Shown here in pieces: positions 3,533 through 33,978 of a stretch of 64,000 bases of DNA (positions are counted from its first letter, which is position 1; every line of letters starts with the position of its first letter). This DNA is from Hydrogenovibrio sp. (GTDB taxonomy: Bacteria > Pseudomonadota > Gammaproteobacteria > Thiomicrospirales > Thiomicrospiraceae). Both the position numbers and the translations under genes were made by a program. The notes beneath the pieces are model-generated. The model was given only the letters and a program-made list of their open reading frames with translations, ran no database searches and was not told the DNA's origin. Location: assembly GCA_965140365.1 (NCBI GenBank), contig OZ223196.1; one strand, written 5' to 3'.

Positions 3533-3569
3533 CCGGTTTTTAACCGAGAATCTTGACGCCTAATTCAAC

Positions 3570-3607
3570 CCAAAACCGACCAGGCCTGGTCGGTTTTGGT
3601 GTTTTTA
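3570..3607 (+). terminator. Rho-independent terminator after topA
   Basis: Perfect 30-nt palindrome ccaaaaccgaccagg|cctggtcggttttgg (3570-3599) followed by a T-rich run tgttttt. It contains the recurrent CCAGGCCTGG core. Confidence 0.8.
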
Positions 3608-3719
3608 TGGCCGGGTTTTCGTTTGGTGATGAATTTTCCGATTGTCGTTTCGATTACAGTAAAATACCCCATAGAATTCAAGAATAACCCCCTACCGTAA
3701 CTAAAGAGATGAAAAGAGC

Positions 3720-5486
3720 ATGAAGCAGCAGGTTGCAGAAATTTTGTCGCAAGTGATTGAGCAGTTGAAACAAGACGGCGTACTGGAGGCGGATTTTCAA
3801 CCCCGCCTAACGGTTGAAAACACCCGAGACAAATCACATGGCGATTTTGCGACCAATCTGGCGATGATGTTGACCAAAGTGGTTGGTCAGCCACCACGCG
3901 CGGTGGCGCAGATGATCATCGATCGCTTGCCGGCGTCCGACTTTGTCGAGAAGGTGGAAATCGCCGGGCCGGGTTTCATCAATTTCTTTGTGCAGGATGC
4001 CGCCAAGTTTGACGTGGTCGAAACCGTGTTGAAAAACGGCGAGGCTTACGGCCAATGCAACGTCGGCCAAGGCCGTTCCGTGTTGGTGGAATATGTGTCC
4101 GCCAATCCGACTGGACCCTTGCACGTCGGACACGGTCGCGGCGCGGCTTATGGCGCTTGTGTGGCGAATTTGCTGTCGGTCGCCGGGTTCAATGTCTCCA
4201 AAGAATATTACGTCAATGATGCTGGTCGTCAAATGGACATACTGGCGGCGTCCACCTGGTTGCGTTATTTGCAGGCCTGTGGCGAAGAGCTGACCTTTCC
4301 GAGCAACGGTTACCAAGGCGATTATATTAATGAAATCGCGCAGACATTGAAGGACGCTGAAGGGGGGCGCTATCAGCGTTCGGCGGAAGACGCCTTTGCG
4401 AATGTTCCGGCGGATGAAGGCGCGGCGGAAGACGGTGACAAAGAAAAACACATTGACGGTTTGATTGAAAATGCCAAAGCGTTGTTGGGGCCGGACGACT
4501 ATCGCGCGGTCTTTGAAGTGGCACTGAACCGTATTCTGGGTGATATTCGTGACGATTTGTCGGGGTTTGGTGTCGAGTTCGACAATTGGTTTTCGGAGCG
4601 CTCTCTGATGGATTCCGGTGTCATTGACGCTGCGTTGGAAAAATTACAGCAAGCTGGCAAAATTTATGAACAAAACGGCGCCTTGTGGTTCCGCTCCACC
4701 GATTACGGTGATGAAAAAGATCGTGTGGTGGTGCGTGAAAACGGGCTGAAAACCTACTTTGCGTCCGACATCGCTTATCATTTTAATAAGCTAGAACGCG
4801 GTTTCGATGTGTTGATTGACATCTGGGGGGCGGACCACCACGGTTATGTGCCGCGAGTTAAAGCGGCGATGCAGGCGCTGGACACCAACCCGGACGCCTT
4901 GGAAGTTTTGTTGGTGCAATTTGCGATTTTATATCGTGGCGGCGAGAAGTTAGCGATGTCGACGCGTTCCGGTCAGTTCGTGACTTTGCGCGAACTGCGA
5001 GACGAGGTGGGGTCGGATGCGGCACGTTTCTTCTACGTACAGCGTAAATCGGAACAGCATATGGATTTCGATTTGGATTTGGCGAAGTCGCAATCCAATG
5101 AAAACCCGGTGTATTACATTCAGTACGCCCACGCGCGGATTTGTCAGGTCATGGCATCCTCCGAGGAACGTGGGTATGTTTATGACCAGGCATCAGGCCT
5201 GGCCAATTTAACGAAACTGGACTCGGAAGCGGAAGCCGATTTGGCAACGCAATTGGCGAAATATCCGGAAATCATCGGCCGGGCGGCTCAGGTTTATGAA
5301 CCGCATCAAATCGCCTATTATTTGAAAGACTTAGCGCATGGGCTGCACTCCTATTACAACGCGACCCCGTTTATCGTGGAGGAGGCCGAGATGCGCAATG
5401 CGCGTTTGACCTTGATTTTGGCTGTGCGTCAGGTGTTGCGAAACGGGTTGGCGTTATTGGGCGTATCGGCACCGGAAAAAATGTGA
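3720..5486 (+). CDS. argS: arginine--tRNA ligase
   Basis: 588-aa ORF with ANPTGPLHVGHGRGA (HIGH-type motif), the KLAMSTRSG region and an anticodon-binding C-terminus typical of ArgS. Confidence 0.92.
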   Translation: MKQQVAEILSQVIEQLKQDGVLEADFQPRLTVENTRDKSHGDFATNLAMMLTKVVGQPPRAVAQMIIDRLPASDFVEKVEIAGPGFINFFVQDAAKFDVVETVLKNGEAYGQCNVGQGRSVLVEYVSANPTGPLHVGHGRGAAYGACVANLLSVAGFNVSKEYYVNDAGRQMDILAASTWLRYLQACGEELTFPSNGYQGDYINEIAQTLKDAEGGRYQRSAEDAFANVPADEGAAEDGDKEKHIDGLIENAKALLGPDDYRAVFEVALNRILGDIRDDLSGFGVEFDNWFSERSLMDSGVIDAALEKLQQAGKIYEQNGALWFRSTDYGDEKDRVVVRENGLKTYFASDIAYHFNKLERGFDVLIDIWGADHHGYVPRVKAAMQALDTNPDALEVLLVQFAILYRGGEKLAMSTRSGQFVTLRELRDEVGSDAARFFYVQRKSEQHMDFDLDLAKSQSNENPVYYIQYAHARICQVMASSEERGYVYDQASGLANLTKLDSEAEADLATQLAKYPEIIGRAAQVYEPHQIAYYLKDLAHGLHSYYNATPFIVEEAEMRNARLTLILAVRQVLRNGLALLGVSAPEKM

Positions 5487-5530
5487 TCATGGACGTCACG
5501 TTCTTTGGTCAGAAGGTAGGATAAACGGTT

Positions 5531-6235
5531 ATGAGGCAATATACTCGGGATTATCGTCATGGTCACAGCCAGACGCGTCAACCGTATCAGCGAAAATCCC
5601 AGATGGCCGAACCGGAAACGGAGGCGCCGCAGACCTCGTCAAAATGGGTGTGGGGGTTGGCTTTGTTGCTGTCCGTGGCCTTGTTTGGCGGTTTTTTCGT
5701 GGTGCAACACTTTGCACATCATGGGGTAAAATCCGAGTCGCCAGTCACGGAGGTTGTTGAAACGGTGACGGAATCGGTGTCGCCGGAACCGCCGGCTGAG
5801 GAATCCGGGGCACTCACTGAGAAGGTCGCAGACGAATCAACGGAAGTGCCTTTGGTCGTGGAAAGTTTGCCGATGGCCAAAGCGCAAGCTGAAGCGGAAA
5901 CGCCGTTGCAATACACTTTTTACGATGGCCTGGCGAAGACTGAAGTGGTGGTGGATGTCGAACCGATTTCCGTAAAACTCAATGCCCCTTATTATATTCA
6001 GGCCGGCACCTTCGGGTCACGAGACATGGCACAAAAAGAACAAGCGCGTTTAAAAACGCACGGTCAGGATTTGACGATTTCGACGGTTACCTGGAAAGGA
6101 CGGGTTTATTATCGTTTAAGAGTTGGGCCTTATGATGACCGCTTGGAAATGAACAAAAAACGTAATGAATTGCGTTCGCTTGGGGTGGATACTCTGCTGA
6201 TTAAATCCCGCCCGAAAACCGATGCGGCCGGGTAA
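5531..6235 (+). CDS. SPOR-domain cell-division protein (FtsN/DedD-like)
   Basis: Basic N-terminus (RDYRHGHSQTRQPYQRK), one TM helix (WVWGLALLLSVALFGGFFVV) and a C-terminal SPOR-like domain (YYIQAGTFGSRDMAQKEQARLK...YYRLRVGPYDD). Confidence 0.75.
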   Translation: MRQYTRDYRHGHSQTRQPYQRKSQMAEPETEAPQTSSKWVWGLALLLSVALFGGFFVVQHFAHHGVKSESPVTEVVETVTESVSPEPPAEESGALTEKVADESTEVPLVVESLPMAKAQAEAETPLQYTFYDGLAKTEVVVDVEPISVKLNAPYYIQAGTFGSRDMAQKEQARLKTHGQDLTISTVTWKGRVYYRLRVGPYDDRLEMNKKRNELRSLGVDTLLIKSRPKTDAAG

Positions 6236-6276
6236 TCCGGGTGGTTGTTCTCACGCGTATTGTATTGACGTTGTCG

Positions 6277-7341
6277 TCAGTCTTGCGCAGCGTTTTCCAC
6301 GTCTTCCAAGTCCTGCTCGGTGACCACCCGATTACGTCCTTGGGTTTTGGCTTTGTAAAGGGCATCATCGGCCCGTTTAATCCAGTCTTCGATGGTTTCC
6401 TGATTTTCGCCACGATAAACCGCTACACCAAAGGACGCGGTGATTTGCCCTAAGTTTTTTTCGGAATCTTTGCGTTTCAATTTAGCGTTTTCAATGCCGT
6501 GCCGGATGTCTTCGGCACGTTGTGCGGCTTGTTCTATGTCGGAATGCGATAACAGCACGGCAAATTCTTCTCCGCCGTAACGGCACAGCGTTTCGGTATC
6601 GCCTTTGGTTTTTTTCATTAAATTGGCGTAATAGCGCAGTACACTGTCGCCGACCAAGTGACCAAAGGTGTCGTTAAAGCGCTTGAAGTGGTCGATATCG
6701 GTGAGAATCAAAGCCAGTTGTTCGGGTGAGTCTTGCGTTTCATCGACCAGGTCGCGAATCGCGTTATTGAAGGCTTTTCGGTTGCCGATTTCGGTCAGTT
6801 CGTCGGTGAGGGTTTCGGCTCGCGCTTCGATGAGTTCTTGGCGAAGACGCAGGATTTCATCGTTGCTGTCCATCATTTCACGATGGAATTCTTCGCTGGA
6901 TTTTTTCATCGAAGAAGCGGTATTTAACACCGAATGGGTGAGTTCTTTCAGTGTTTCCGCATCCATGTCTTGTGTGGACAAGGTATTGGTGTAGCTGTCG
7001 AGCTCCTGCGTGTGCTGTTCGAGTTTGTCGCTCCAGGCGTTCATGCGCTTAACGACCAGATTGATCAGGCGTTTGAAGGCGCGGTCAAAGTCGTTGCCGC
7101 TTTCGTCGTCGGCAAAATACTCATCGTAAAGGCGACGCCCGAGTCGGTCGTTGTAGCCGAATGGGTCTTGTAAGGCATTGTCCATTTCCTGGCGGAATTT
7201 TGGGTGATTGCCTTTGTAGTACTGATACCAGATAAAGTAATTGAGCGGAGTTGGATTGATACCCTGTTCTTCGAAAATATCAATGAGCTGAACGAAAATA
7301 CGTTGAGCCTTTTCGGGGGCGTCTTTAATGTCTAACAACAT
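6277..7341 (-). CDS. diguanylate cyclase (GGDEF domain)
   Basis: 354-aa ORF. The C-terminal half contains DIDHFKRFNDTFGHLVGD and RYGGEEFAVLL (GGEEF active site). Confidence 0.88.
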   Translation of the reverse strand: MLLDIKDAPEKAQRIFVQLIDIFEEQGINPTPLNYFIWYQYYKGNHPKFRQEMDNALQDPFGYNDRLGRRLYDEYFADDESGNDFDRAFKRLINLVVKRMNAWSDKLEQHTQELDSYTNTLSTQDMDAETLKELTHSVLNTASSMKKSSEEFHREMMDSNDEILRLRQELIEARAETLTDELTEIGNRKAFNNAIRDLVDETQDSPEQLALILTDIDHFKRFNDTFGHLVGDSVLRYYANLMKKTKGDTETLCRYGGEEFAVLLSHSDIEQAAQRAEDIRHGIENAKLKRKDSEKNLGQITASFGVAVYRGENQETIEDWIKRADDALYKAKTQGRNRVVTEQDLEDVENAAQD

Positions 7342-7499
7342 CCTGAAATTCCTACCAATCGACTTTGTGGTTTGAAAGCGTTTGTTTGTGTTTGAACTGC
7401 CATTTTACACCAGAATTCCGACCGCGTTCATAGAAAAAAAAGAGCGGATGGAGTATAGTAATTTTTACATATTTGCGGGCAAAATGCCGAGGAGACCCC

Positions 7500-7754
7500 A
7501 TGATTAATCCGAAACACATTGAGTCGCTGGTGGAAAACATCAGCGATATTTTGCCGCCAGGCCTGGGCGAATTGCCGGAAAATGCCAAACAGAATTTGAA
7601 ACAGACGCTGGCCAGTACCCTAGAAAAGATGGACTTGGTATCACGTCAGGAGTTTGATATTCAAGCGGGCGTGTTGGCCAAAACCCGTGCCAAATTAGAG
7701 GCGTTGGAAAAACAGGTGGCCGAATTGGAAGCTAAGCAGTCGGTGGATTCCTAA
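7500..7754 (+). CDS. ubiK: UbiK/YqiC (BMFP) family accessory protein
   Basis: Short coiled-coil protein MINPKHIESLVENISDILPPGL...VSRQEFDIQAGVLAKTRAKLEALEKQVAELE. A GAGGAG RBS lies 6 nt upstream of the ATG at 7500. It sits immediately upstream of comM, as in many gammaproteobacteria. Confidence 0.75.
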   Translation: MINPKHIESLVENISDILPPGLGELPENAKQNLKQTLASTLEKMDLVSRQEFDIQAGVLAKTRAKLEALEKQVAELEAKQSVDS

Positions 7755-7758
7755 GCAC

Positions 7759-8862
7759 ATGACAGTGACGGGCCAATACGCAACGCTGTTATCTCGTGGT
7801 TTGTCCGGCGTACAAGCGCCGGAGGTGCAAATTGAAGTGCATGCCACTAACGGGTTGCCGAGCTTGTCGATTGTCGGATTGCCGGAAGCATCGGTTAAGG
7901 AAAGTAAAGACCGGGTACGCAGTGCGGTGATGGGGGCCGGGTTTCAATTGCCGCCGAAGCGGATGACCATTAACCTAGCACCAGCCGATATTCCTAAGCA
8001 GGGTGGGCGTTATGACTTGCCGATCGCCTTGGGTATTTTGGTGGCGACAGGTCAGCTTGCACCTGTCCGAGACTTATCAACACTGGAGTGGTTTGGCGAG
8101 CTGGGCTTAAACGGTGCTTTGCGCCCGGTTCCCGGTGTTTTACCGGCCGTGATGCAAGCGGCTCAGGCCGGGCGTACGGTCGTGGTGCCCATGGCGAATT
8201 TAGCCGAAGCGAGTCTGGTGGAAGGGGTGCGGGTATTGGGTGCGGAGAACCTATTGTCGGTGTGCCATTACCTGGCGGACAATCGTGCCGAATTACAGGC
8301 ACCGGAAACCGTTGACTTTACTTCCGCTTCTTACCTGGAAGACATGGCCGATATTCGCGGACAACAGCAGGCCAAGCGTTTGTTGGAAATTTGTGCAAGC
8401 GGGGGACATTCTTTGTTAATGGTTGGGCCGCCGGGGTCGGGCAAAAGCATGCTGGCCTCGCGGTTGGTAACGCTGTTGCCGGATTTGCCTTTGGAACATG
8501 CGATCGAGGTGGCGTCCGTGCATTCGGTCGCCGGTAAAACGGTGGAAGTGGATCGTTTTCGGCAGCGGCAACTGGTTCAACCGCATCACACCGCGACGGC
8601 CGCCGCCATGGTAGGCGGTGGTTCGGGCTCCAACCCTAAGCCGGGTGCGGTGTCGTTGGCGCATCGTTCGATTTTGTTTTTGGATGAATTGCCGGAGTTT
8701 AATCGAGCCGTGCTGGAAGCTTTGCGGGAGCCGTTGGAAACCGGTCGCGTGGAAATTGCTCGCGTGAACCAACAAGTGACCTATCCGGCCAGAGTGCAAC
8801 TGGTGTGCGCCATGAATCCAACGCCATCCGGATTTTTCCCAGACGATGCTTTGGGACGCTGT
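7759..8862 (+). pseudogene. comM: comM (yifB) Mg-chelatase-like AAA+ competence protein, 5' part, interrupted by the transposon
   Basis: N-terminal Lon-like/ChlI domain, Walker A MVGPPGSGKSMLASRL and Walker B ILFLDELPEF. The frame runs into the transposon end, where the ORF stops after 2 extra codons (8868). Confidence 0.9.
8858..8862. repeat. target-site duplication copy 1 (GCTGT)
   Basis: GCTGT immediately precedes the TGTTAACT transposon terminus. The same pentamer follows the other terminus at 33974-33978. Confidence 0.8.
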
Positions 8863-8868
8863 TGTTAA

Positions 8869-8927
8869 CTACAAAATTATTTGATAATTACAAAATTAAA
8901 TGAGAATCTACAAAATTAAATGATAAT
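8869..8927 (+). repeat. left-end TnsB-binding-type repeats (3 tightly packed copies)
   Basis: tacaaaattatttgataat (8870-8888), tacaaaattaaatgagaat (8889-8907) and tacaaaattaaatgataat (8909-8927). Confidence 0.75.
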
Positions 8928-9201
8928 GAAGTTTCTTTCAAGGCAGTAAAAGTAACAAACTTCAAATATTCTCTTTTGATTCTTAACTGTATTTTTATGT
9001 ATTAATGGATGTTATTAAACTTTTAGGTAAAGGACTGTCTATAAAGTTGTTTCAAAATAATCTCCTGCCATGAAATTTCTGAATACAAGCAGTTTACTTG
9101 TATTGAACGCAAGCAATTTACTTGTATTGGCGCAAGCGTTTTGCTTGCGAAACGCTTTTTGCCTGTTGATAAGGGTGTTTTAGGTAAAGGAGAAAGTTTG
9201 A

Positions 9202-11022
9202 GTGGCGGGGGCTTTTACTCTTAAAAATTTTGCAGAACAGTGTCAACCTGACAAGTTTTATCGGCTTGATATTATTAGGGGTGTTTCATTCGAAAAAGCT
9301 TACGACCCTACGATGCCCTTCCAGTCAGTCATTGTTAATTTCTCTTGTTATTCCAGTGAATATCAGTCGCTCGACAAAATAAGATCCATTCCAGCTAAAG
9401 ACATTTTCAAGTCTTGCTACATCGACAAAACAGCCAACCTGGCCATTGATGTTGATGTAACTAATCTGATTTTTTTAAAACCTGGCACCGTCTGGAGAAA
9501 TGGCGCCTCAATGTGGGAGTCGACTGAATTAACCAATGTCTGCATTAATCAATCTGAAGCAAGCATGGTTTCTTCTTATAGTGAAAGTAAACTTGGAACT
9601 AAAATGCCCTTCCTCTATGGTAGAAAAAATGTCCAGTTTCTGAAATTTCCCAATTCAAAAGTCAAGGACAAGACGATCACTGTTTTGATCCCTACAACTG
9701 AAATCATCCGTTATTATTTTTCGGGTTCAACCTATTTCACGAGAGAGTTGTTTAATGGTGCGCTGAAAAGCTTTAATAACTCTGGTGAAGCCACTAGACT
9801 TTTCTTTAAATATGAGTTCGATGAAGCTAACGAAAGCGTTTATATTTGGTTAAAAAGGAATTGTTTCGATTCGGATGCTTTCATGATTGCCCGCGGTCTG
9901 GCTGATGAAGTCGCAATGAATGCAATGAGCTATATCTACGCTTCTCTGGTACATGCAAAAACAAATTTTAAGACTAAGGATGGCGACATAATCCCAGAAG
10001 TCTGCCCAAGAACAAGTCTTCCATTCTCCGGAGCAACCAATCTTGAAGTTCTGGGGCAGTGGCTACCACGAAAAGATGGTGAAACGGAATTCACAGAATA
10101 TATGGTCAGAACTATCGAGGATTGCGATCACCCACTACCCTTCAAGAAAATCAGAATTGAATCGGTTGATTCTTATCAATCCAGTGGAGAGGTTAATGAG
10201 GATGAAGATCCGAAGCCATCAAAACCAAGAAGAAAACGTGATGAAGATAGTGATCCTAGGCCACCAAACTATACCGAGGGCGAAAGGCCGACCGATGGTA
10301 TTGCTCCTGAAGAGTTGAAGTTCATGATGCGGCGGTTCAGCCACCTAAAAGATGTTCAGGTTGAAAAGGTCGAAAAGGTATCTGAAAAGGAAAAGCAACG
10401 CTATTATCAGCAAGAAAAAGAATCCAATTCAGATGATGGAAGTACTTTGCCTGGCGACTACCGAAAAGATAACGATCTTCAGCCTTGGAATAATAGAGCG
10501 ATAGATTCTGAACCGATCCCTATCTCCGAAAGGTTGGTCACGGTATCAAATGCAGTGGCAACTGTTCTTGAAAGGGAGAGTAGTTGGTTTGCTGAGGCGT
10601 TACCGGTCAATTGTGTCGATGATACCTTACCTTTTGGGCTTTACAGTTTTGAGCGGCCGGCAGGTAAAAATGCTCGATATGATTGGAATATGGTTGGAGA
10701 AAGAAGCCGGAGAGCCTTGTTTTTGGCTATCTCGAACCAAAGTGGCCAAACGGTTTACTTGTTGGAGATTGAAGGTAAAGGAGAGGTCAGCTTTTCGTTG
10801 TTTCTTTTTAGAGCAGATCAATATGAGGGTCTTGATTATTTCGGCGGTGCCAGGTCGTTGATGTTTGAAATAGCAGATTCTTCAGGTTCTAAGATTAAAG
10901 ATGGGATCCTGGAGGACTTTGTTGTGACTAGTATGAAGCATACCGAAAGCGATAATGATAGCTTTGTGGATCGGTTGCATCGTGCTATTGATGGGGTGTT
11001 TAAAGACGATGAGGATGCTTAA
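9202..11022 (+). CDS. hypothetical protein (orf606): two globular regions joined by a charged low-complexity linker
   Basis: 606-aa ORF with a GTG start and an AAGGAG RBS at 9187-9192. Residues ~320-430 are D/E/K/P-rich (EDEDPKPSKPRRKRDEDSDPRPPNYTEGERP...). I recognise no catalytic motif. Confidence 0.6.
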   Translation: MAGAFTLKNFAEQCQPDKFYRLDIIRGVSFEKAYDPTMPFQSVIVNFSCYSSEYQSLDKIRSIPAKDIFKSCYIDKTANLAIDVDVTNLIFLKPGTVWRNGASMWESTELTNVCINQSEASMVSSYSESKLGTKMPFLYGRKNVQFLKFPNSKVKDKTITVLIPTTEIIRYYFSGSTYFTRELFNGALKSFNNSGEATRLFFKYEFDEANESVYIWLKRNCFDSDAFMIARGLADEVAMNAMSYIYASLVHAKTNFKTKDGDIIPEVCPRTSLPFSGATNLEVLGQWLPRKDGETEFTEYMVRTIEDCDHPLPFKKIRIESVDSYQSSGEVNEDEDPKPSKPRRKRDEDSDPRPPNYTEGERPTDGIAPEELKFMMRRFSHLKDVQVEKVEKVSEKEKQRYYQQEKESNSDDGSTLPGDYRKDNDLQPWNNRAIDSEPIPISERLVTVSNAVATVLERESSWFAEALPVNCVDDTLPFGLYSFERPAGKNARYDWNMVGERSRRALFLAISNQSGQTVYLLEIEGKGEVSFSLFLFRADQYEGLDYFGGARSLMFEIADSSGSKIKDGILEDFVVTSMKHTESDNDSFVDRLHRAIDGVFKDDEDA

Positions 11023-11043
11023 AAATGATTAGAGGGTGGTTTG

Positions 11044-11355
11044 ATGCCGGCTAAAGAGATTGCTATCGCAGCTTTGATTGCAACCAGTGGTGTTACGGAT
11101 GCTGAGTCACCTAAAGAAAAAATCCTATTTGGCGGTGATATGGCTCTAGTCGCTACCGAGCGTTGTGTCGCGGACGGTCGGGATATTTATAAAGGGTTTA
11201 CTCTTATCTCGGATTATCAGAATGGGTACTTTAAGGTTAATTGTCAGATATTGGAAACAACTACGGGTGATTACTATGCTTCCAAGGGAGTTTATTATGA
11301 GAATTCGGAAATGCTTGATCTTCTGATTGATTTATTTGATAGGCGTGTAGATTAA
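11044..11355 (+). CDS. hypothetical small protein (orf104)
   Basis: ORF begins 22 nt after the orf606 stop on the same strand, with a purine-rich stretch agagggtgg upstream. No recognisable motif. Confidence 0.45.
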   Translation: MPAKEIAIAALIATSGVTDAESPKEKILFGGDMALVATERCVADGRDIYKGFTLISDYQNGYFKVNCQILETTTGDYYASKGVYYENSEMLDLLIDLFDRRVD

Positions 11356-11619
11356 TAATTCAAGCAAACGAAAAAGCACACATGTGGCACCCAATAAAGA
11401 GGGACATTCGCTAGTCTGGCTCGGAGAGGTTTTCTGCGCATTTTGATACCAAAAAGGAAGCGGAGTTTCATGCTAGAGAAAGCAGCCAAAATCAGGAAAC
11501 CGAATTGCTGATTCATAACAGGCATGGGAAAAGTGTTGCCTTCAAACTTTAAAATATGGAATTTCTATTGTGTCGAAGTTCCATAGAAGTCATTGGTTGC
11601 TGGAAAGAAAGGAGTTGAT

Positions 11620-12081
11620 ATGTTTGGATTATTTAGGTATTTCTTTGCTTTGGTTGTTTTGAGCTTGGGAGTATTTGGTATATCTGTTGCCGATAATCGG
11701 AATTTCGGCGCTGTTGTTGTAGATGAGGTAACTAGCATTTATGACGGTGATACTTTTCGAGTCAATATCAATGATTGGCTGGCGATTATTGGGTAAAGGA
11801 TTCCTATTCGGGTTAAAGGTATTGATACACCAGAACTTCGAGGTAAATGTTAGAAAGAAAAAGAGTTGGCAAGAAAAGCTAAACGGCACATTGCTCAGCT
11901 GATTCGGGGTGCCAAAATAATTCAATTACAAAATATTGACAGGGGAAAATATTTTCGCATCCTTATGGATGTATCGGTTTGATGGTTTGAGACTTGGGAG
12001 AAAGTCTTATTTTGAATGGTTTTGCTGTAAGGTAATGACGGTGGAGCTAAGGTTGATTGGTGCGAATTAGTAATAAATTAG
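11620..12081 (+). pseudogene. staphylococcal-nuclease (SNase/thermonuclease)-like secreted nuclease, decayed
   Basis: Signal peptide MFGLFRYFFALVVLSLGVFGISVA, then ...IYDGDTFRVNINDW...IPIRVKGIDTPELRGKC*KEKELARKAKRHIAQL...RGKYFRIL. In-frame TAA (11794) and TAG (11851) are present. At least two frameshifts come before DLGESLILNGFAVR and DGGAKVDWC. Confidence 0.7.
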
Positions 12082-12089
12082 GGTTGAGT

Positions 12090-13097
12090 ATGCAAATAAA
12101 TCACGCGATTGTTCATAAGTTACAAAAAGAGCTTCATCAAGAGTCAAATGTTCTTCCTCGCCAAACGCCGCTCGAGGTAAACGAAAACCTCGAGCAGTTA
12201 GTTGGCTACATTATCACTTTGTATAATGAAAAAACCGGGCGAGGTTATGGCAAGTTTTACAGTGATAATGTCAGCTATCCATTTAGCAAATTACTGTCAG
12301 ATTTTCAGAGTGAGGAAGTTGACACTGATTTTATTGCGTTTACCTTCTCTGCTATGGATTTATTAAAGTCCAGAATTGATGGTGAGGGCCTAGCGACTGG
12401 TGGATATATCTTATTTATTGAATACGAACACCGCCAAAGCAAAATTGTTTTAGTTGTATCACTTAAAGACAAAGACGGGTTTATCTTTGATGATAATCTG
12501 GATTTGGATAATCAGCCGCATATTGATTTAGAACATTTGCATGAAATGGCTCGTATTGATACCACTAAGTGGCACTTAGGAAATGAAGGTCGTTATCTTT
12601 CATTTGCGAAAAAACGACAAAATGCAGACAGAAGCTTTAGTCGCTATTTTAGAGAGTTTATTGGGTGTGATGAATTCGAAGAGGAAAATCAACTCACTCA
12701 AGAAGTCGTGAGCGCATGTAAGGCTTATGCAAAGTTTGGTCCCCTAAGTGAAGAGCGCAAGCTTGAGATATTGGAAATTACGCATAACTATATGGAAGAA
12801 ATTTATAAATCGAATGGCGTTTTTAAAGTCCATGACCTAGCAACTAGACTAGATCCGGAAACTCCTGATAGGTTTACCTCTTACATGTATGCTCAAGAAA
12901 TTGAATTATCTGACGGCTTTAAACCTAACAAAAGTGCCTACAGAGGTTTGAAGAGACGTACCATAAGAGATGGAACAATTGCCTTGTCATTTAATGCAAG
13001 CGATTTAGGTAAGTCTGTAACTCATACTGAGGGCGAGGAATTTATTCGTGTTAAACTCTCCCCAGAAAAAATCAAAGAACTCACTGAAGCCAACTAA
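12090..13097 (+). CDS. nucleoid-associated protein NdpA/YejK (NA37) family homologue
   Basis: From the ATG at 12090: MQINHAIVHKLQKE... followed by ...GGYILFIEYEH..IVLVVSLKD, ...MARIDTTKWHLGNEGRYLSFAKKR and ...YFREFIGCDE. The order and spacing of these blocks parallel E. coli YejK as I remember it. The track's TTG at 12057 is probably too far upstream. Confidence 0.7.
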   Translation: MQINHAIVHKLQKELHQESNVLPRQTPLEVNENLEQLVGYIITLYNEKTGRGYGKFYSDNVSYPFSKLLSDFQSEEVDTDFIAFTFSAMDLLKSRIDGEGLATGGYILFIEYEHRQSKIVLVVSLKDKDGFIFDDNLDLDNQPHIDLEHLHEMARIDTTKWHLGNEGRYLSFAKKRQNADRSFSRYFREFIGCDEFEEENQLTQEVVSACKAYAKFGPLSEERKLEILEITHNYMEEIYKSNGVFKVHDLATRLDPETPDRFTSYMYAQEIELSDGFKPNKSAYRGLKRRTIRDGTIALSFNASDLGKSVTHTEGEEFIRVKLSPEKIKELTEAN

Positions 13098-13104
13098 ATA
13101 AATT

Positions 13105-14310
13105 ATGTCTGAGTCAAGCATACAGGTAACTTGTAAAGATGAAATCAAGGCGATTCTTGATGTTATCGCTTGTATGCAAAACCCAGAATATGAAAACGAT
13201 TATGTAGAAGGTGAGGTTTCAAATTCGCCCGAAAATGATAAGAAAATCCAGGCGCTCATTGCTATTAATTCGGATCGTTATTCATTTGGTTCACTAAGTC
13301 GTTGCCCAGAAATATCTATTCAACTGCCTAAAAGACAGGACTGCTTTTTTGCTCAAAATATTAATGATTTATTGGCTAAAGACTTTTCACAAGAAAAGCA
13401 GCCCAGTTGTTGGTATTTACAAGATAAAGGTTTGTTTTTTCCTGATGAAGTAGATCAATGTGGTGATCAACAAGTCAAAAATTATTTGGCGTTAATTGAT
13501 TTAATTGATGTGCTTAAGAGTATTGCTGACCATACTAGCACTAACTCACTCATTTTTCTTCAGGGTGAAAAGTTAGAAATCACTATTGAATACGATGTTG
13601 AAGATTTAACAGAGCTAAGCGAGGTAGATGAATTTAAAAATCACCTTTCGGATAAATTGCATCTAGAGCAGAGAAAAGCAATTTTCAAAAAAGTGTTATT
13701 GGATCAATTATCACGAACGCAAAAGAAAGGCCGTTTTAAAAAACTTATAAACCAGTTTGATCAGATTTATGACCGCTATCTTGAAAATTATAAGGTTTAT
13801 GTATCCGAGTTCTCTGTAGAAAGCGTCATGGATGAGTTGCATGAAAAAAAGATTGAATTCGTCAGTAAGTTTAGCGATACCTTATCAAATATACAAAATC
13901 AATTATTAACAATACCTGTTGCGGTAATTCTTATAGCGAGCCAACTTCAAAAAACAGGATTATCCCTTAAGAATGTTGCAGTATTAATTGCCGGACTGAT
14001 ATTTTTTGGCTTCATGCGGATGTTAGTTTCCAATCAACGCTCCATCCTTGAGTATTTGCATACCGAACTGCAACACACCAGAGAGCAGTTTAAAAAGAAG
14101 TATGATGATTCACTTTCGAATCAGCTTGATAAGGTTTTTAATGACCTTGAGTGTCGATATATCAAACAAAAAAAATTGCTTAAAATTGTAATGAAATCAA
14201 TCTGGTTTATTCTTGTCACTGTAATTATTATGTTTACGATTCAGAGCCAAGATATAAGTTTGGATTCTTTCATAGTTTGGTTTACTAGGTTATTTGATCC
14301 TTGTGAATAA
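13105..14310 (+). CDS. hypothetical membrane protein: ~265-aa soluble N-terminal region plus 3 predicted TM helices
   Basis: Starts 7 nt after the NA37-like gene. Hydrophobic segments are LLTIPVAVILIASQL, VAVLIAGLIFFGFMRMLV and IWFILVTVIIMFTI. No recognisable enzymatic motif. Confidence 0.6.
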   Translation: MSESSIQVTCKDEIKAILDVIACMQNPEYENDYVEGEVSNSPENDKKIQALIAINSDRYSFGSLSRCPEISIQLPKRQDCFFAQNINDLLAKDFSQEKQPSCWYLQDKGLFFPDEVDQCGDQQVKNYLALIDLIDVLKSIADHTSTNSLIFLQGEKLEITIEYDVEDLTELSEVDEFKNHLSDKLHLEQRKAIFKKVLLDQLSRTQKKGRFKKLINQFDQIYDRYLENYKVYVSEFSVESVMDELHEKKIEFVSKFSDTLSNIQNQLLTIPVAVILIASQLQKTGLSLKNVAVLIAGLIFFGFMRMLVSNQRSILEYLHTELQHTREQFKKKYDDSLSNQLDKVFNDLECRYIKQKKLLKIVMKSIWFILVTVIIMFTIQSQDISLDSFIVWFTRLFDPCE

Positions 14311-14363: not shown

Positions 14364-15173
14364 TCACTGCTCCTTTCGCAGTGATTTTGTTCGGAATAGA
14401 TAAATTTGAAACTCTGGTGGGTGTTGAGTTTCAGGGTTTTCCGCAGCTTCTAAGTCTCTCAAGACATATCTTATTAAGGCACGCCGAGTTGTAATACGCC
14501 TCCCAACGGTGCCTTTGAACAACTCATCTCGAATCAGTTTTTCTTGTCCCTCGGTCAATGATGGATGTGGTCGAAACTCAAGTTGGACCTTTTCTTCCCA
14601 TTCGACATCAGTAGGGGTGTCTACACCCTTAGAAGCTGACCCCGCATGCGATATTCGAGCAAGATTGAAATCGCGGTGCTGTTCGGTGAGTTCATCGAAC
14701 CCCCTTACATGCCATCTTCTCCCAGCGAAGACAAAAGCCTTGGGATGGACGACGCGTTCAATGCCCTCTGGATTATTCATAGACCTGTAGAAAATTCTGG
14801 TAGCTGAACACTGATCCATAGCTGAATGAATTACTCGAAATAAGGCGGGATCAACGTTGGTAAAGTCTCTCTGGGTGTCCTCAACTTTGACATGAGTTAC
14901 TTGGTCCTTCACCGACCGAAAATAGGCTTCGATAGTAAGATCGGCGATTTCAGGCTTGAATCGAGCCGTGGGAACATAGCGCCCACGGCCCTGCCCTTTT
15001 AGCGTTTTCGTATTGTACGGGAATGCATCCCGATAGGAAGCCAATACCCGTGAGGCCTGCACGCTGGTTACGCCAAACTTTTCTCTAAGGCGTTGATTAG
15101 TTATCTCGCCTTCGTATGCTAGTAACATCTCTATGAACTCAAACTGCAGTCGCGTTCGGTTGCCCAATGTCAT
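14364..15173 (-). CDS. WYL-domain transcriptional regulator (BrxR/CapW-like)
   Basis: N-terminal wHTH (ITNQRLREKFGVTSVQASRVLASYRD) and a WYL-type core (HPKAFVFAGRRWHVRGFDELTEQHRDFNLARI). It is divergent from jetA. Confidence 0.8.
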   Translation of the reverse strand: MTLGNRTRLQFEFIEMLLAYEGEITNQRLREKFGVTSVQASRVLASYRDAFPYNTKTLKGQGRGRYVPTARFKPEIADLTIEAYFRSVKDQVTHVKVEDTQRDFTNVDPALFRVIHSAMDQCSATRIFYRSMNNPEGIERVVHPKAFVFAGRRWHVRGFDELTEQHRDFNLARISHAGSASKGVDTPTDVEWEEKVQLEFRPHPSLTEGQEKLIRDELFKGTVGRRITTRRALIRYVLRDLEAAENPETQHPPEFQIYLFRTKSLRKEQ

Positions 15174-15254: not shown

Positions 15255-16745
15255 ATGCCTGAAGAACCGGACAACTTGTTTGATCGTTTACCGGAGCACA
15301 TTTTCAGACCGCTTGGGGCTCATGAGCACGCGCGTCGCAATTGGTCGCTTCTAAATCACCTGTATAACGATTTTTTTGCCCCTGAGGCTGACCCACCGGA
15401 AGGTGAAGGCTGGTCACAAAAACGCGTGGTGGCTTCGATTGAGCGATTTTTAGTTCGATGGGATGATGAGCATGAAACTAATTTTGAGCAACGAGGGGCT
15501 CCTGTAAACGTACGCGCACATGATGCTCTTTCAAGCTTTCTGGATAGTGGTTGGCTTACCATTGATCGAGTTGGTTTTACACAATTTGTGATTATGCGCC
15601 CAACTGTCCAAAGCCTCTTTGAGTTGCTCAAAACATTTGCTGAGCAAGGACCCGAGTTTATTGGTGGGCGTGTGCAATCGGTCCGGAATAACTTGCTGCA
15701 GGTAAAGGCAGACCCTGAAAAGAACGCTGCTGTATTTCAAGTTGCTGCCAAAGAATGCTCTGCGCTTCTTCAAATGTTGAACACCACTCGCATGCGGGTT
15801 CGCGAGGCCAGCGAATATTTGCGTACCCAGGAATCAGCAAACCTATTCCTAGAGAAATTCTTTGGAGATTACATCTCTAGTCTCTATATCGGAGATTATT
15901 CAGACCTCTTTTCCCGTAATCATCCACTCGCATCACGCTGGGATATCGTTGATCTCGCTTCCCGAATTACCGAAGAACCAGAAAGTCGGGAGCAATTGCG
16001 TCGATGGTATCGCAAAAACCTACGTTGCCGCTCTAACGAGGAAGCGGATGCATGGATTGAAAGTGATACTTCTCGCGTATTGGCATTGCGCGAAGTCGAC
16101 CGATTGCTCGCACGTCTGAAAGATGCAGTAACCCGCGCAAATGACCAAGCCCTTGGCTATCTCCAGTATAAAGTACGTTCTCAGGGTAATTTCGATATTA
16201 AGACCGATCAGGTCATAAAAGCAGTTGTGCGGGCTGCTGATTCTTGGCCTAACGACGAACCTTTATCTTTACCGATAGGCTGGTCGCAAGGAAGGCTCTT
16301 GAGTGAGGGAGCATTGAAGATGCCGACCAAGAAGCCGAAAAAACGCAAAGGAGCAGTCATCCAGAAACGTCAGTTATCACCAGAGGAAAGAGTTCGACGT
16401 TTGGTCCGCCAAATTATGAATGGCAACCGGGAAGTTTCCGAAACGCGGATTATTCAGTACATTGACCATCACGTAGACCCCGGAGGGGTTCTAGAAAGCA
16501 GTTCTATGGAAGTGGGTAGCATCAACGATCTATGCATCTTGGCAGCATTCACTCGACTGGGGTTGATAGCTGAACGAACGCAAAGGAATACACGCCAAGG
16601 TATTTTACGCCCGAAATTATTTGAGGAACTCAGCGAACATATTGAGATTGAGCTCACAGGTGAACGCTTTGAAAACGAATACTTAGAAGCGCCTGTAGTA
16701 AGGATACGCCGCCGGAAAAAAGGGAGTCCAAACAATGCCTATTAG
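15255..16745 (+). CDS. jetA: Wadjet JetA (MksF/kleisin-like subunit)
   Basis: 496-aa first gene of a four-gene overlapping operon whose sizes (496/212/1140/412 aa) and order match JetABCD. The assignment rests mainly on context. Confidence 0.7.
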   Translation: MPEEPDNLFDRLPEHIFRPLGAHEHARRNWSLLNHLYNDFFAPEADPPEGEGWSQKRVVASIERFLVRWDDEHETNFEQRGAPVNVRAHDALSSFLDSGWLTIDRVGFTQFVIMRPTVQSLFELLKTFAEQGPEFIGGRVQSVRNNLLQVKADPEKNAAVFQVAAKECSALLQMLNTTRMRVREASEYLRTQESANLFLEKFFGDYISSLYIGDYSDLFSRNHPLASRWDIVDLASRITEEPESREQLRRWYRKNLRCRSNEEADAWIESDTSRVLALREVDRLLARLKDAVTRANDQALGYLQYKVRSQGNFDIKTDQVIKAVVRAADSWPNDEPLSLPIGWSQGRLLSEGALKMPTKKPKKRKGAVIQKRQLSPEERVRRLVRQIMNGNREVSETRIIQYIDHHVDPGGVLESSSMEVGSINDLCILAAFTRLGLIAERTQRNTRQGILRPKLFEELSEHIEIELTGERFENEYLEAPVVRIRRRKKGSPNNAY

Positions 16746-17373
16746 TTGGAAACGTATTGCAGAACAAGACGAAGCTTACACTGTTCGGGATTTTCAAAAA
16801 GCGGCGCAACGCCTGATTGTTGACCAAGTATTGTACCAAGCAAACCCGAAGCAGAGAGCAGATTATGATTTGGTGGCGACACATGAAATTGTCTTTGCAG
16901 AAGCGCTGGATCTATTTGGCTGCATGCTTGATCTCAATGTTCAAGAGCGATACGCAGCTTGCGTTCCAACGGTCACCGAGGTGAGCAAGATTCCTCTGAT
17001 GCACACTTTGTTAGCTTTAGTATTGCGAAAACTTTATGACCATCACATGAATAGTGGGTCACTTCACGCAGGCATTGCTGGAGTTAGCTTGCCTGAACTC
17101 GAAGCGGCATTCCAGGAATCAACAGGGCGAGAATTGCCAATGAAGCCCCAATCGGAGCTGCTAGGGATGATGGACGCGATGAAGAGGTGGGGGATAGCTC
17201 GCTTGGTCAGAACTGAGAACTTAGGAGAGGCAGCATGGTTTGCAGAGATTCTTCCTGGAATTCAGAGCCTGATCAACGAGAGAACTCTCGTCATGCTGAA
17301 ATCACATGCCGAATTTCTGTATGAGCCTGATGGTTTGGATGATAAAGAACAACAAAAGGAGAGCTCTTTATGA
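16735..17373 (+). CDS. jetB: Wadjet JetB (MksE-like, DUF4194-type)
   Basis: 212-aa acidic protein. It overlaps jetA by 11 nt and jetC by 4 nt. Confidence 0.7.
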   Translation: MPISWKRIAEQDEAYTVRDFQKAAQRLIVDQVLYQANPKQRADYDLVATHEIVFAEALDLFGCMLDLNVQERYAACVPTVTEVSKIPLMHTLLALVLRKLYDHHMNSGSLHAGIAGVSLPELEAAFQESTGRELPMKPQSELLGMMDAMKRWGIARLVRTENLGEAAWFAEILPGIQSLINERTLVMLKSHAEFLYEPDGLDDKEQQKESSL

Positions 17374-20300: not shown

Positions 20301-20792
20301 TTAGACATCCTAGTCGATGGTAAAAGAGTCGATCGAATGAGTAACCGGCAAGGGGCGGGATCCAATGGTGAACATATAGCACCTATGTATGTTGCTGCGG
20401 GCGCAGCTCTTGCAAAGGCTTATCGGCTCCACAGTAACAAAGGGAAGCAACGCGGTATTGGACTTATTTGCCTTGATGAGGCTTTTCATGGCATGGACAC
20501 AATCAACGCTATAGCTACAGCACGTTTCCTACAAAGCATTGGCTTGCAGCTCATTATGGCGGGGCCGGAGCTTGAACGCACTAAGCTGGCACCTGTAACT
20601 CAGACTATCTATGACCTGGATCGAGAAGGTTTGGATCTACAAATGGAACGGACCAAGTTCAAGGAGGCAGCCAACAAGCTGATGGTAAGTGATATGCCTG
20701 ACGAGAACCCTGAAATTATGAAAGGTGCGTATCAGCAACTCGGACTTGAACAGCCAACAGAATATGCACTTTCCAATGATGGTGGACAATGA
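17370..20792 (+). CDS. jetC: Wadjet JetC (SMC/MksB-like ATPase)
   Basis: 1140 aa with N-terminal Walker A FLGPNGSGKSSTLDAIQ, long coiled-coil-like E/K/L/Q-rich middle, a C-terminal signature-like GAGSNGE and Walker B/D-loop GLICLDEAFHGMD. Confidence 0.88.
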   Translation: MKQLKRISLVQFYLHEAVDIEVEGATAFLGPNGSGKSSTLDAIQIAMLGGNQQYIRFNTQSVSAKQRRSLAGYCLGMLRNPEKDSEVIGRARDEARTYIVLVFGNDMETEWVSAGICIEADSETDEHEVKGLFVLPGIALKADDCIVYDGSDQRPIPFADFRENAREQARKSGRTPIFTDKSSEYVQELLYSLNGERMPNSRQFMSSFVKSMTLKNVDSIDQFVRDYVVESNPVDIATFRKQVEQFIALRDLIMRTKARISQLEGIITDFDRAQQAECRIATLEAIKAVFNVEWLGEKIDNIETQIDTLKFQIKTAEGLAAYAKEQRDLKQDEITQLKVRLESDHKEQLRQRLEDQISSQRELITAYQHPEISRANRLISSLRELIDEPSFSAIRSLMSTVVDALVEARGSEDPGSALSKSIWKHDGNLSQIRIFSQSNLTTIQKKQNELTEERDAIRRRISAAAQTGRLLNDGAARLLDILNHAGMEAKPLSALLRISDPSWAPALEAYLGGDRDALIITEGNTREAVKLLRQARQSGIQVSGAAIIQPFHLRNIDTSAKGEEFALGVFETDDETARRFVWQKFGSMRLVDTELELETHPRAITRDGMLSQGGLTKSIRIVPISDLRIGKEVQDTSLLTRHASELQGELEQFEKHRKRVEGLEQALFTNANDDGQGVTEKLAEANEVINLANQKLKSLDVSHLDELKSLLNTAVSKHSEYDKQYTEHDRLAAGLKEQIGQCWERKKQQERQFPAIRQAEHEAVTNALVNKEWLDSMKDEIERAETSYDLRLKEVDRKLDYHTPRLRNAEEKASLELARYVQDERLDVQVADMEWHERYDWVLEEKMKLFDTELHRYEEEAELARQASEETLRSDIAMSLHDRFKEMELERRERNKILESCPSFTGGERYKFTAKVVPQYEALVRYINQIAQDDNNFSLFAENPDEINETLRDLVEAAADSGNASGVLDYRQFYTFDLDILVDGKRVDRMSNRQGAGSNGEHIAPMYVAAGAALAKAYRLHSNKGKQRGIGLICLDEAFHGMDTINAIATARFLQSIGLQLIMAGPELERTKLAPVTQTIYDLDREGLDLQMERTKFKEAANKLMVSDMPDENPEIMKGAYQQLGLEQPTEYALSNDGGQ

Positions 20793-24649: not shown

Positions 24650-24651
24650 AT

Positions 24652-30347: not shown

Positions 30348-30349
30348 AT

Positions 30350-33859: not shown

Positions 33860-33966
33860 TTATTATTGTAGGATTTTTGGTTTCTGTACTATCTTTTAAC
33901 TCAGATTATCAATTAATTTTGTAGAAAATGGCATTTTTACTCCCGATATTATCATTTAATTTTGTA
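33852..33966 (-). repeat. right-end TnsB-binding-type repeats (3 spaced copies)
   Basis: Read on the minus strand: tacaaaattaaatgataat (33966-33948), tacaaaattaattgataat (33923-33905) and the weaker tacaataataaatgagaat (33870-33852). Confidence 0.7.
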
Positions 33967-33973
33967 TTTGACA

Positions 33974-33978
33974 GCTGT
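33974..33978. repeat. target-site duplication copy 2 (GCTGT)
   Basis: GCTGT immediately follows the ...ATTTGACA terminus and is identical to 8858-8862. Confidence 0.8.

Follow-up and report, generated by a model that had tools for sequence, protein, structure and literature searches.

The gene at the left end of a comM-interrupting Tn7-like transposon in Hydrogenovibrio very probably encodes a highly diverged TnsE

The gene orf606, the one lying closest inside the left end of a Tn7-like element in a 64,000-nucleotide stretch of Hydrogenovibrio sp. DNA (hereafter the window), very probably encodes a highly diverged TnsE. It would belong to the branch whose genes stand by themselves at the left end, a long way from tnsABC-tniQ, an arrangement seen in Tn6022-like comM elements. 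Tn7-type transposons use TnsE as their second target selector, for jumps into replicating plasmids. A first-pass annotation of this DNA had offered as one option that the gene is element-related and encodes a TnsE-type factor for target selection, and we found that both globular domains of the protein are independently homologous to TnsE, in agreement with that option. We do not regard orf606 as a new system, because the left-end arrangement has already been described for Tn6022-type elements. Faure et al. (2023; PMC10293859) reported remote, left-end TnsE genes in Tn6022-like elements, and Tn6022 TnsABC+TnsE transposes into the F plasmid (NAR 2024, Peters laboratory; PMC11014353), so both the arrangement and the activity were published in 2023-2024.

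The transposon that surrounds orf606 is complete. It spans 8863-33973 (25.1 kb), has TGT...ACA termini and interrupts comM, and a pattern search for its 19-nt TnsB-type repeat returned six copies in the window, three per end, versus 0.08 expected by chance. The minus strand of the right end carries the transposition core of tnsA, tnsB, tnsC and tniQ (span 29214-33859), with 18 kb between orf606 and tniQ, and the defence cargo in the element includes Wadjet JetABCD, a WYL regulator and a DS1_2-like gene. The ends and core are made up as follows:

8858-8862, no strand: left copy of the target-site duplication GCTGT in comM; the same pentamer lies at 33974-33978, directly outside the termini
8863-8927, plus strand: left end, with terminal TGTTAAC and three 19-nt TnsB-type repeats (8870-8888, 8889-8907 and 8909-8927)
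8945-9180, plus strand: extra spacer of roughly 200-240 nt, missing in most relatives (left-end alignment)
29214-30347, minus strand: tniQ (Pfam)
30350-31261, minus strand: tnsC, TniB family (Pfam)
31258-33195, minus strand: tnsB (Pfam)
33179-33859, minus strand: tnsA (Pfam)
33852-33978, minus strand: right end, with three inverted TnsB-type repeats (33852-33870, 33905-33923 and 33948-33966), the terminus at 33973 and the GCTGT copy at 33974-33978

The gene had been described as lying directly beside the left-end repeats, which needs correcting: 275 nt separate the last repeat from the start codon in the window, versus about 65-77 nt in most relatives. With a repeat finder we located hairpins in the extra spacer, together with two kinds of repeats, one of 24 nt in tandem (9080-9127) and a direct one of 14 nt (9021-9034 and 9178-9191). 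The spacer is shared with the H. thermophilus locus L015, where a 2.6-kb phd-fic module occupies the same place. Left-end TnsB-type repeats number three in most related loci, two in L003 and L004, and one in L008. The DUF2188 and SNase genes near orf606 are degraded in the window.

That the 606-aa reading frame is a real gene, as first annotated, is supported by an AGGAG ~8 nt upstream of the GTG, by an M-A-x-x-F N-terminus conserved among homologues, and by 22 full-length homologues of 42-97% identity, all of them intact. It is under purifying selection, with a dN/dS of 0.18 versus the closest relative and of 0.15-0.20 in each of three parts. The AlphaFold models agree with the layout proposed earlier, in which an N-terminal domain (residues ~1-325), a linker (326-440) and a C-terminal domain (441-606) follow one another. 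The gene, its parts and the gene downstream are located as follows:

9202-11022, plus strand: orf606, 606 aa, GTG start
9202-10176, plus strand: N-terminal domain (aa ~1-325), homologous to the TnsE N-terminal domain (hhalign)
9676-9753, plus strand: most conserved block of the orf606 family, ITVLIPTTEIIRYYFSGSTYFTRELF (aa 159-184), in gap-free alignment to TnsE 116-141
10177-10521, plus strand: charged, D/E/K/P-rich inter-domain region (aa 326-440; pLDDT profile and DSSP of both models)
10522-11019, plus strand: C-terminal domain (aa 441-606), homologous to the TnsE C-terminal domain (hhalign; Foldseek on model 1)
11041-11355, plus strand: orf104, whose start codon is more likely the ATG at 11044 than the TTG at 11041

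The inter-domain region is partly disordered, with short beta-strands in the better AlphaFold model, and is itself under purifying selection (omega = 0.20). Short beta-strands have been reported in the linker of TnsE too (PMC12153342).

We found no family above threshold for orf606 in Pfam, PADLOC, NCBIfam or PHROGs, and searches of PDB sequences with the single sequence and with a family-profile HMM gave no match. A Pox_E6 match in Pfam was dismissed as noise (15.5 bits, under the cut-off of 25). The label of orphan gene nonetheless has to be given up, as the superfamily counts at least 611 representative sequences. A broad orf606 profile again recovered the close family only in a third large protein search, and tblastn against plasmids returned no match. 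For one distant superfamily member, the plasmid contexts were either broken up by IS elements or too large for interpretation.

The profile comparison that had been proposed for this protein was run with hhalign and matched TnsE nearly from end to end. The superfamily profile A3, built from orf606 relatives, aligned to canonical Tn7 TnsE over 497 columns (98.8%, E 6.1e-17; orf606 residues 9-598 versus TnsE 3-537). Taken separately, the N-terminal domains matched each other at 96.5% (E 8.7e-10, 230 columns) and the C-terminal domains at 94.4% (E 8.6e-8, 136 columns), while the linker reached just 21%; cross-domain and reversed controls gave 0.5% or less, and the reversed N-terminal domain 0.1%. 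A superfamily HMM recovered 69 of 77 canonical TnsE sequences at E<=1e-3 (maximum 55.8 bits) versus none of 77 reversed decoys, and in the reciprocal search a TnsE HMM matched 8/172 sequences versus no decoys. The link to TnsE rests on the wider superfamily profile, because orf606 itself has no Pfam TnsE_C or NCBIfam match and the profile of its close family, used alone, falls short of significance against TnsE (probability 20%). With TnsE_C (PF18623; gathering score 26.7 bits), canonical TnsE reaches 182 bits, and orf606 has no match to this model. Marginal matches occur in 2 of the 22 close homologues (E 0.025) and in one of 83 distant relatives (E 5.9e-4), which makes TnsE_C, marginally, the sole recurrent and thematically relevant Pfam family in the superfamily. 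In addition, two orf606 homologues carry TnsE-type names in UniRef.

The canonical Tn7 protein that we used for comparison (E. coli R721 WP_000251879; PDB 5D16/5D17 and 9D5L; PF18623) is homologous to orf606 in both domains and is only about 11-15% identical to it. It is 538 aa long, whereas orf606, at 606 aa, has a longer charged linker. Canonical tnsE closes the tnsABCDE operon at the right end, whereas orf606 lies at the opposite, left end and on the other strand.

The residues that the two proteins have in common fall in both domains. The block IPTTEIIRYYFSGSTYFTRELF, which had been singled out in the first-pass annotation, is the most conserved of the family and aligns without a gap to the top block of the TnsE N-terminal domain, IPQLELARSLFLINSYFCRSCL; canonical TnsE and orf606 have IPxxExxRxxF...YF in common here, and the column frequencies are 82/83 for P164 and 75/83 for both E167 and R170. 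TnsE 116-141 contains the PQLELARxLF block, a beta-clamp-binding motif whose location reportedly goes back to Parks et al. 2009. In this candidate clamp block P, E, R and F are conserved in the orf606 superfamily, and the Gln position is T, C or V: Q122 is invariant in canonical TnsE (34/34), whereas the equivalent position 165 of orf606 is variable. In the C-terminal domain, the canonical residues R388, R420, R432, E450, S488, H510 and D523 are common to orf606, with the pairs (orf606=TnsE) R492=R420, R503=R432, E522=E450, S561=S488, H580=H510 and D584=D523. H580 is found in 80 of 83 superfamily sequences and R503 in all 83, and R432 is likewise invariant in TnsE. The DNA-contacting residues of the TnsE C-terminal domain are K458, M459, L460, S488, N509, H510, K512, R420 and R422, of which H510 and S488 contact the DNA backbone and R420 the minor groove (PMC12153342). 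In the orf606 superfamily, S488, H510 and R420 are kept, N509 is replaced by K, and K458, K512 and R422 are not kept.

Structural support for the C-terminal domain is model-dependent. In a Foldseek search with AlphaFold model 1, the top seven PDB matches were all the TnsE C-terminal domain (5d17/5d16/9d5l; probability 0.97-1.0, TM 0.52-0.57), whereas this domain was absent from the top 50 PDB matches of model 2, the more confident one (pLDDT 87.9). Faure et al. (2023; PMC10293859) described a PriB/OB-fold similarity for the TnsE N-terminal domain; Foldseek found no such match for the N-terminal domain of orf606 with either model.

We compared the position of the gene across related loci. In 10 of 11 loci (the window and 9 of 10 others), the comM fragment breaks off at an identical codon and is followed by the end repeats and then directly by the orf606 homologue; the single exception is L015, in which phd-fic lies between the end and the gene. 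The cargo is completely different from one related locus to the next and the orf606 homologue stays at the left end, as the earlier positional prediction had anticipated. A minimal element of 10.5 kb, at L002, contains only the orf606 homologue, an R-M module and tniQ-tnsCBA. It is very improbable that orf606 is an inactive relic, or ordinary cargo that sits at the end by chance: the lack of a curated family match, the degraded DUF2188 and SNase genes nearby and the extra spacer before the end repeats would suit such an origin, but the 22 full-length homologues are intact, dN/dS is 0.15-0.20 in every part and the end position is conserved in 10/11 loci.

The other option raised earlier was that orf606 and orf104 form a new defence gene pair. 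The two genes are co-oriented, and the gap between them, given before as 22 nt, measures 18-21 nt after the orf606 stop, because orf104 starts at either TTG 11041 or ATG 11044. No terminator-like site was found between them, and orf104 is probably co-transcribed with orf606. However, the proposal that orf104 is a functional partner is not supported, as the gene is present only in the window, in L015 (100% identity) and in L001 (71-73%), with one weak partial match in L006; it is missing from L002, and unrelated ORFs take its place in L003 and L005. No family match was found for it in Pfam, PADLOC (E<=0.01), NCBIfam or PHROGs. We conclude that orf104 is variable, dispensable cargo and not a conserved partner. 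The close, co-oriented arrangement and the richness of the element in defence cargo (Wadjet JetABCD, the WYL regulator and the DS1_2-like gene) might still have suggested a new two-gene anti-phage system carried as cargo, but neither gene has a PADLOC match at E<=0.01, orf104 is not conserved alongside orf606, the end position of orf606 is fixed while all cargo varies, and both of its domains are homologous to TnsE. We dropped the defence pair on the PADLOC result and the lack of orf104 conservation, and consider it extremely unlikely.

The TnsE of Tn6022-type elements (Orf4 of the Tn6022/AbaR family) resembles orf606 in several ways. Both proteins are ~600 aa with an N-domain, linker and C-domain, and the gene for each stands by itself near the left end, at a distance from tnsABC-tniQ, and points inward on the comM strand. 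The elements are alike as well, each with a comM insertion, TnsA, TnsB, a TniB-type TnsC and a short TniQ, and the window core is 38% (TnsB), 34% (TnsC), 31% (TnsA) and 27% (TniQ) identical to the locus tnsf19node of Faure et al. PF18623 matches are weak for Tn6022-type TnsE and for the orf606 superfamily. For two published TnsE proteins of Tn6022-type loci, the comparison covered about 368 residues from the N-terminus. The A3 HMM matched their N-terminal domains along the whole length, at 32.5 and 23.6 bits, and scored below 0 against unrelated controls, and the pairwise comparison of orf606 with these two domains was not significant (BLASTP E 0.48). Hydrogenovibrio and Thiomicrospira hosts were not found in the supplementary files of Faure et al. 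2023 (PMC10293859).

The elements differ in where they insert and in what may guide them there. In the published Tn6022-type loci, comM is cut before Walker B, at VGGG|SQPKPGE, whereas the window insertion comes after Walker B, behind ...DDALGRC and 58 codons past ILFLDE. Relative to the Tn6022/TnsF site it lies ~70 codons (~205 bp) further downstream. TnsF (Orf3/TniE of Tn6022) is a comM-specific selector with a zinc finger and an inactivated tyrosine recombinase, encoded beside tniQ. It is an accessory selector of comM-targeting Tn7-like elements, as orf606 is predicted to be, and we found no similarity between TnsF and orf606. The window ORF beside tniQ is nearly equal in length to TnsF (497 versus 498 aa). 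We rejected it as TnsF: it has no BLAST match to published TnsF, and its residues 1-199 contain no cysteine, hence no zinc-finger cysteines. This ORF is wHTH/PD-(D/E)XK-like, and a scan with it found no relatives. A 490-aa ORF in L002 was likewise rejected as TnsF or as a homologue of the 497-aa protein (BLASTP E 0.13). Judged from its genes, the window element appears to lack TnsF. The clade of the window likewise appears to be without TnsF, and L002 has no gene of that kind.

With TnsF apparently absent and TniQ short, a role as comM selector, or as its helper, is conceivable for the TnsE-like protein. We therefore considered whether orf606 is TnsE-derived with a changed role, either as comM selector (alone or as helper) or in a regulatory or immunity function, instead of plasmid targeting. 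The 497-aa ORF beside tniQ is not TnsF, the insertion point lies ~70 codons from the Tn6022/TnsF site, the clamp-motif Gln is not conserved, and the element-specific proteins of L002 are just TnsA, TnsB, TnsC, the short TniQ and the orf606 homologue, all of which would fit such a change. However, the TnsE proteins studied to date are not sequence-specific (PMC12153342), the Tn6022 version acts as TnsE in assays (PMC11014353), and the superfamily also occurs at another attachment site, the 3' end of lipA, and is therefore not tied to comM, so that we consider a changed role unlikely. We also hold it doubtful, although conceivable, that the Hydrogenovibrio/Thiomicrospira elements are a TnsF-less sister group of Tn6022 which reached a new comM site ~205 bp downstream, whether through the short TniQ on its own, through the 497-aa protein or through the TnsE-like protein, the last being the only other element-specific protein of L002 beyond the core and the short TniQ. 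If the TnsE-like protein did take part in site-specific comM targeting, that activity would be new for the TnsE fold.

With orf606 read as a diverged TnsE, homology to the Tn7 and Tn6022 proteins suggests that its C-terminal domain would bind duplex DNA without sequence specificity, while the N-terminal domain may read that part of a replication structure which is single-stranded or 3'-recessed, and perhaps also the sliding clamp. The protein-DNA complex would then recruit TnsC, and so activate the TnsA+TnsB transposase. By this predicted route the element would enter DNA under active replication, conjugating plasmids for example, and spread horizontally, while the tniQ pathway would direct it to comM for vertical inheritance.

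By our analysis, a so far unannotated "hypothetical protein" is predicted to be the product of a fifth transposition gene in a defence-island transposon, and an element with Wadjet cargo would thus have a plasmid-targeting route for horizontal spread. The superfamily counts at least 611 representative sequences, and curated models (Pfam TnsE_C and NCBIfam) leave nearly all of it undetected. It is worth following how a TnsF-less relative reaches its different site in comM, and the divergent left-end TnsE branch would now extend to deep-sea sulfur oxidisers.

At the left end of a Tn7-like transposon, the first gene inward is the 606-aa ORF orf606 (9202-11022, +). The transposon's termini, TGT...ACA, are bordered on either side by the 5-bp duplication GCTGT (8858-8862 and 33974-33978). 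Repeats of 19 nt of the type TACAAAATTAAATGATAAT occur three per end, with 6 matches in the window against 0.08 expected by chance. Genes for TnsA, TnsB, a TniB-type TnsC and a short TniQ (377 aa) lie at the right end on the minus strand, and the interior, which holds the cargo, is low in GC. The left-end features and the flanks are as follows.

7759-8862: 5' part of comM, left flank of the element
8863-33973: Tn7-like transposon, 25,111 bp, inserted in comM
9021 and 9178: 14-nt direct repeat TTTTAGGTAAAGGA, copy 2 overlapping the ribosome-binding site of orf606
9080-9127: tandem 24-nt repeat, within an extra left-end segment
9134-9157: 11-nt hairpin, within the same extra segment
from 33979 (ORF 33928-34407): 3' part of comM, right flank of the element

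The first-pass annotation had placed orf606 directly beside the TnsB-type repeats; no other gene lies between them, but an additional stretch of roughly 200-240 nt (8945-9180), which most relatives are without, separates the repeats from its start. This segment may have a regulatory function, or it may be a scar left when cargo was inserted or excised; the window holds no further copy of TTTTAGGTAAAGGA.

orf606 is a real gene under selection, with a dN/dS of 0.18 against its closest relative and 0.15-0.20 in each of three parts. Full-length homologues (n = 22, 42-97% identity) come from Hydrogenovibrio and Thiomicrospira genomes and from metagenomes, and a profile of the family matched 611 representative proteins, mostly of 540-650 aa, in a library of 1.8 billion proteins (E<=1e-3). 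The annotation had raised two possibilities, that orf606 is a TnsE-type target selector or accessory factor, or that it forms a new defence pair with the 104-aa ORF that follows, orf104 (11041-11355, +).

orf606 itself had no match in Pfam, PADLOC, NCBIfam or PHROGs. Across its superfamily, TnsE_C (PF18623) was the one Pfam family of thematic relevance to recur, with marginal matches in 2 of the 22 close and 1 of the 83 distant members, and two homologues are named 'TnsE C-terminal domain-containing protein' in UniRef. We compared an 83-sequence superfamily alignment with a 34-sequence TnsE alignment built from the authentic Tn7 TnsE of plasmid R721. The full-length profiles matched with 98.8% probability (E 6.1e-17, 497 columns), pairing orf606 9-598 with TnsE 3-537. 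The match held separately for the N-domains (96.5%, E 8.7e-10) and the C-domains (94.4%, E 8.6e-8), while the low-complexity linker reached only 21%, and cross-domain and reversed-sequence controls gave <=0.5%. With E<=1e-3 as the cut-off, the superfamily HMM picked up 69 of the 77 canonical TnsE proteins, at up to 55.8 bits, and none of the 77 reversed decoys; reciprocally, the TnsE HMM picked up 8 of 172 superfamily members and 0 decoys. Since the close-family profile alone was not significant against TnsE, the link rests on the wider superfamily, a legitimate reliance because searching the whole library recovered every member at E<=1e-14. These results support the TnsE-type reading.

Two AlphaFold models bore out the annotated layout of an N-domain (aa 1-325), a charged linker (326-440) and a C-domain (441-606). 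The PriB-like match of the N-domain reported by Faure et al. was not reproduced with orf606. For model 1, made from the 22-sequence alignment (pLDDT 70; C-domain 85-93), the seven best PDB matches in Foldseek were the TnsE C-terminal domain (5D17, 5D16 and 9D5L; probability 0.97-1.0, TM 0.52-0.57, 145-160 columns), and the remainder were noise. Model 2, made from the 83-sequence alignment, was compact (pLDDT 87.9, pTM 0.85) and had identical C-domain secondary structure, yet TnsE was not among its top 50 Foldseek matches. We regard the fold evidence as supportive but model-dependent. That the TnsE C-domain is recovered with the low-confidence model but not with the high-confidence one is a caution for full-length multi-domain Foldseek queries.

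The most conserved block of the family, ITVLIPTTEIIRYYFSGSTYFTRELF (aa 159-184), which the first-pass annotation had flagged, aligns without gaps to TnsE 116-141, TRYHIPQLELARSLFLINSYFCRSCL, the two having P, E, R and an aromatic residue in common. We take this TnsE block to be the beta-clamp-binding motif. Clamp binding by orf606 is plausible but uncertain, since its block aligns to that presumed motif and the Gln kept by all canonical TnsE proteins varies in the superfamily. C-domain residues pair as R503 (83/83) with R432, E522 with E450, S561 with S488, H580 (80/83) with H510, R492 with R420 and D584 with D523; TnsE K458, K512 and R422 are not kept in the superfamily. A DNA-bound TnsE structure places R420 in the minor groove and shows DNA backbone contacts from S488 and H510 (PMC12153342).

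An orf606 homologue stands directly 3' of the comM 5' fragment in the window and in loci L001, L002, L006 and L007, and L003, L005, L008, L009 and L010 are short contigs beginning inside the same fragment. The codon at which comM ends is identical across all ten related loci. End repeats come next (three in most, two in L003 and L004, one in L008), and the gene starts 84-96 nt from the first base of the last repeat, or 104 nt from it in L008. The one positional exception is L015 of H. thermophilus (CP035033.1; 97% identical), where a 2.6-kb phd-fic toxin-antitoxin module separates the end repeats (7119-7156) from the TnsE-like gene. In the same locus (2757-10000) the comM 5' fragment breaks off near aa 288, and the next 3.5 kb code for a Lactamase_B/anti-Pycsar Apyc1-like protein and for a 552-aa protein of no assigned function. 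This arrangement suggests that a second insertion, or else a rearrangement, took place close to the TnsF/Tsy-type site. A distant superfamily branch (Aeromonas and others; L014 and L016, both 10001-11731; about 18-22% identity to orf606) lies ~55 nt past the lipA stop codon. This position is an insertion boundary too, at a different attachment site. The 7-10 kb covered in these loci held no Tn7 core genes, and they are either large elements at the lipA-3' site or orphaned left-end remnants.

The downstream cargo is completely different among loci: RelA/SpoT, DUF2188-SNase-PRTase-CE/ORC-Cdc6, radical-SAM HxsD, or R-M. The Hydrogenovibrio MAG locus L002 (JAVLAW010000003.1; 8755-21004) is a minimal 10.5-kb element in comM consisting of a TnsE-like gene, an R-M module (a BfiI-like restriction enzyme and two methyltransferases) and tniQ-tnsC-tnsB-tnsA; TnsF, orf104 and a 497-aa ORF that the window carries are all absent from it. 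Homologues of orf104, which had no family match, occur only in L015 (100%) and L001 (71-73%), and unrelated small ORFs take its place in L003 and L005. The two ORFs and their layout were as annotated, but their spacing is 18-21 nt, with no terminator-like site in the gap. orf104 is probably co-transcribed cargo, not a partner of orf606, and the defence-pair alternative found no support. The other cargo of the window is as follows.

11369-11531 and 11617-12066, +: degraded counterparts of genes intact beside the TnsE-like gene in L001, L009 and L010: a DUF2188 homologue split over two frames, and an SNase (thermonuclease) homologue with an in-frame stop at 11794-11796
12057-14310, +: NA37/NdpA-like nucleoid-associated protein (346 aa, Pfam 2e-61) and, after 8 nt, a 401-aa protein
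14364-15173, -: WYL/BrxR-like regulator, divergently transcribed, upstream of Wadjet
15255-22027, +: complete type I Wadjet, JetA-JetB-JetC-JetD
23186-25290, +: 487-aa HAD-hydrolase/PRTase/zinc-ribbon fusion, then a 212-aa DprA-like/SLOG protein
26323-27096, -: SocA/Panacea-domain protein, overlapping a 235-aa ORF (25619-26326, -), with which it looks like a toxin-antitoxin pair

The pair at 12057-14310, kept in L015, is possibly a defence pair; its 401-aa protein has C-terminal membrane-like segments and matches NCBIfam DS1_2_antiphage (117 bits, under the 315 cut-off) and phrog_5023 (3e-56).

Faure et al. 2023 (PMC10293859) reported a weak detection of TnsE among Tn6022-like transposons, and a 2024 NAR paper (PMC11014353), which used the name TnsE (Orf4), showed that Tn6022 can transpose into the F plasmid in dependence on TnsABC+TnsE. 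Given these published proteins, the 27-38% identity of the window's core proteins to a Tn6022-type locus (Faure et al. supplementary sequences), and superfamily HMM matches to the N-domains of both published Tn6022-type TnsE proteins (32.5 and 23.6 bits; unrelated proteins <0), orf606 appears to be a new, very divergent member of a kind already described in 2023-2024. The insertion sites differ: published Tn6022-type loci have comM cut between VGGG and SQPKPGE, upstream of Walker B, whereas the window's insertion follows ...DDALGRC, which puts it 58 codons past the Walker B motif (ILFLDE) and ~70 codons (~205 bp) downstream of the Tn6022/TnsF site. All ten related loci share the insertion codon, so within comM the clade uses an att site of its own. 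The 497-aa ORF (27534-29027, -; 186 nt downstream of tniQ) resembles TnsF, the comM-specific selector of Tn6022, in size (498 aa), but we ruled it out as TnsF because it has no Cys in residues 1-199 and no BLAST similarity to published TnsF. Its only match was a weak one to Mrr_cat_2 (PD-(D/E)XK; aa 387-463, E 0.002); the ORF could encode a cargo nuclease with a role in defence, or else another kind of target selector.

The element raises the side question of comM targeting without TnsF, and L002 would offer a useful minimal system for reconstitution. Curated models miss nearly all of a large TnsE-like superfamily, in which orf606, judged by homology, would act as a structure-specific target selector bringing TnsC-TnsAB to replicating DNA.
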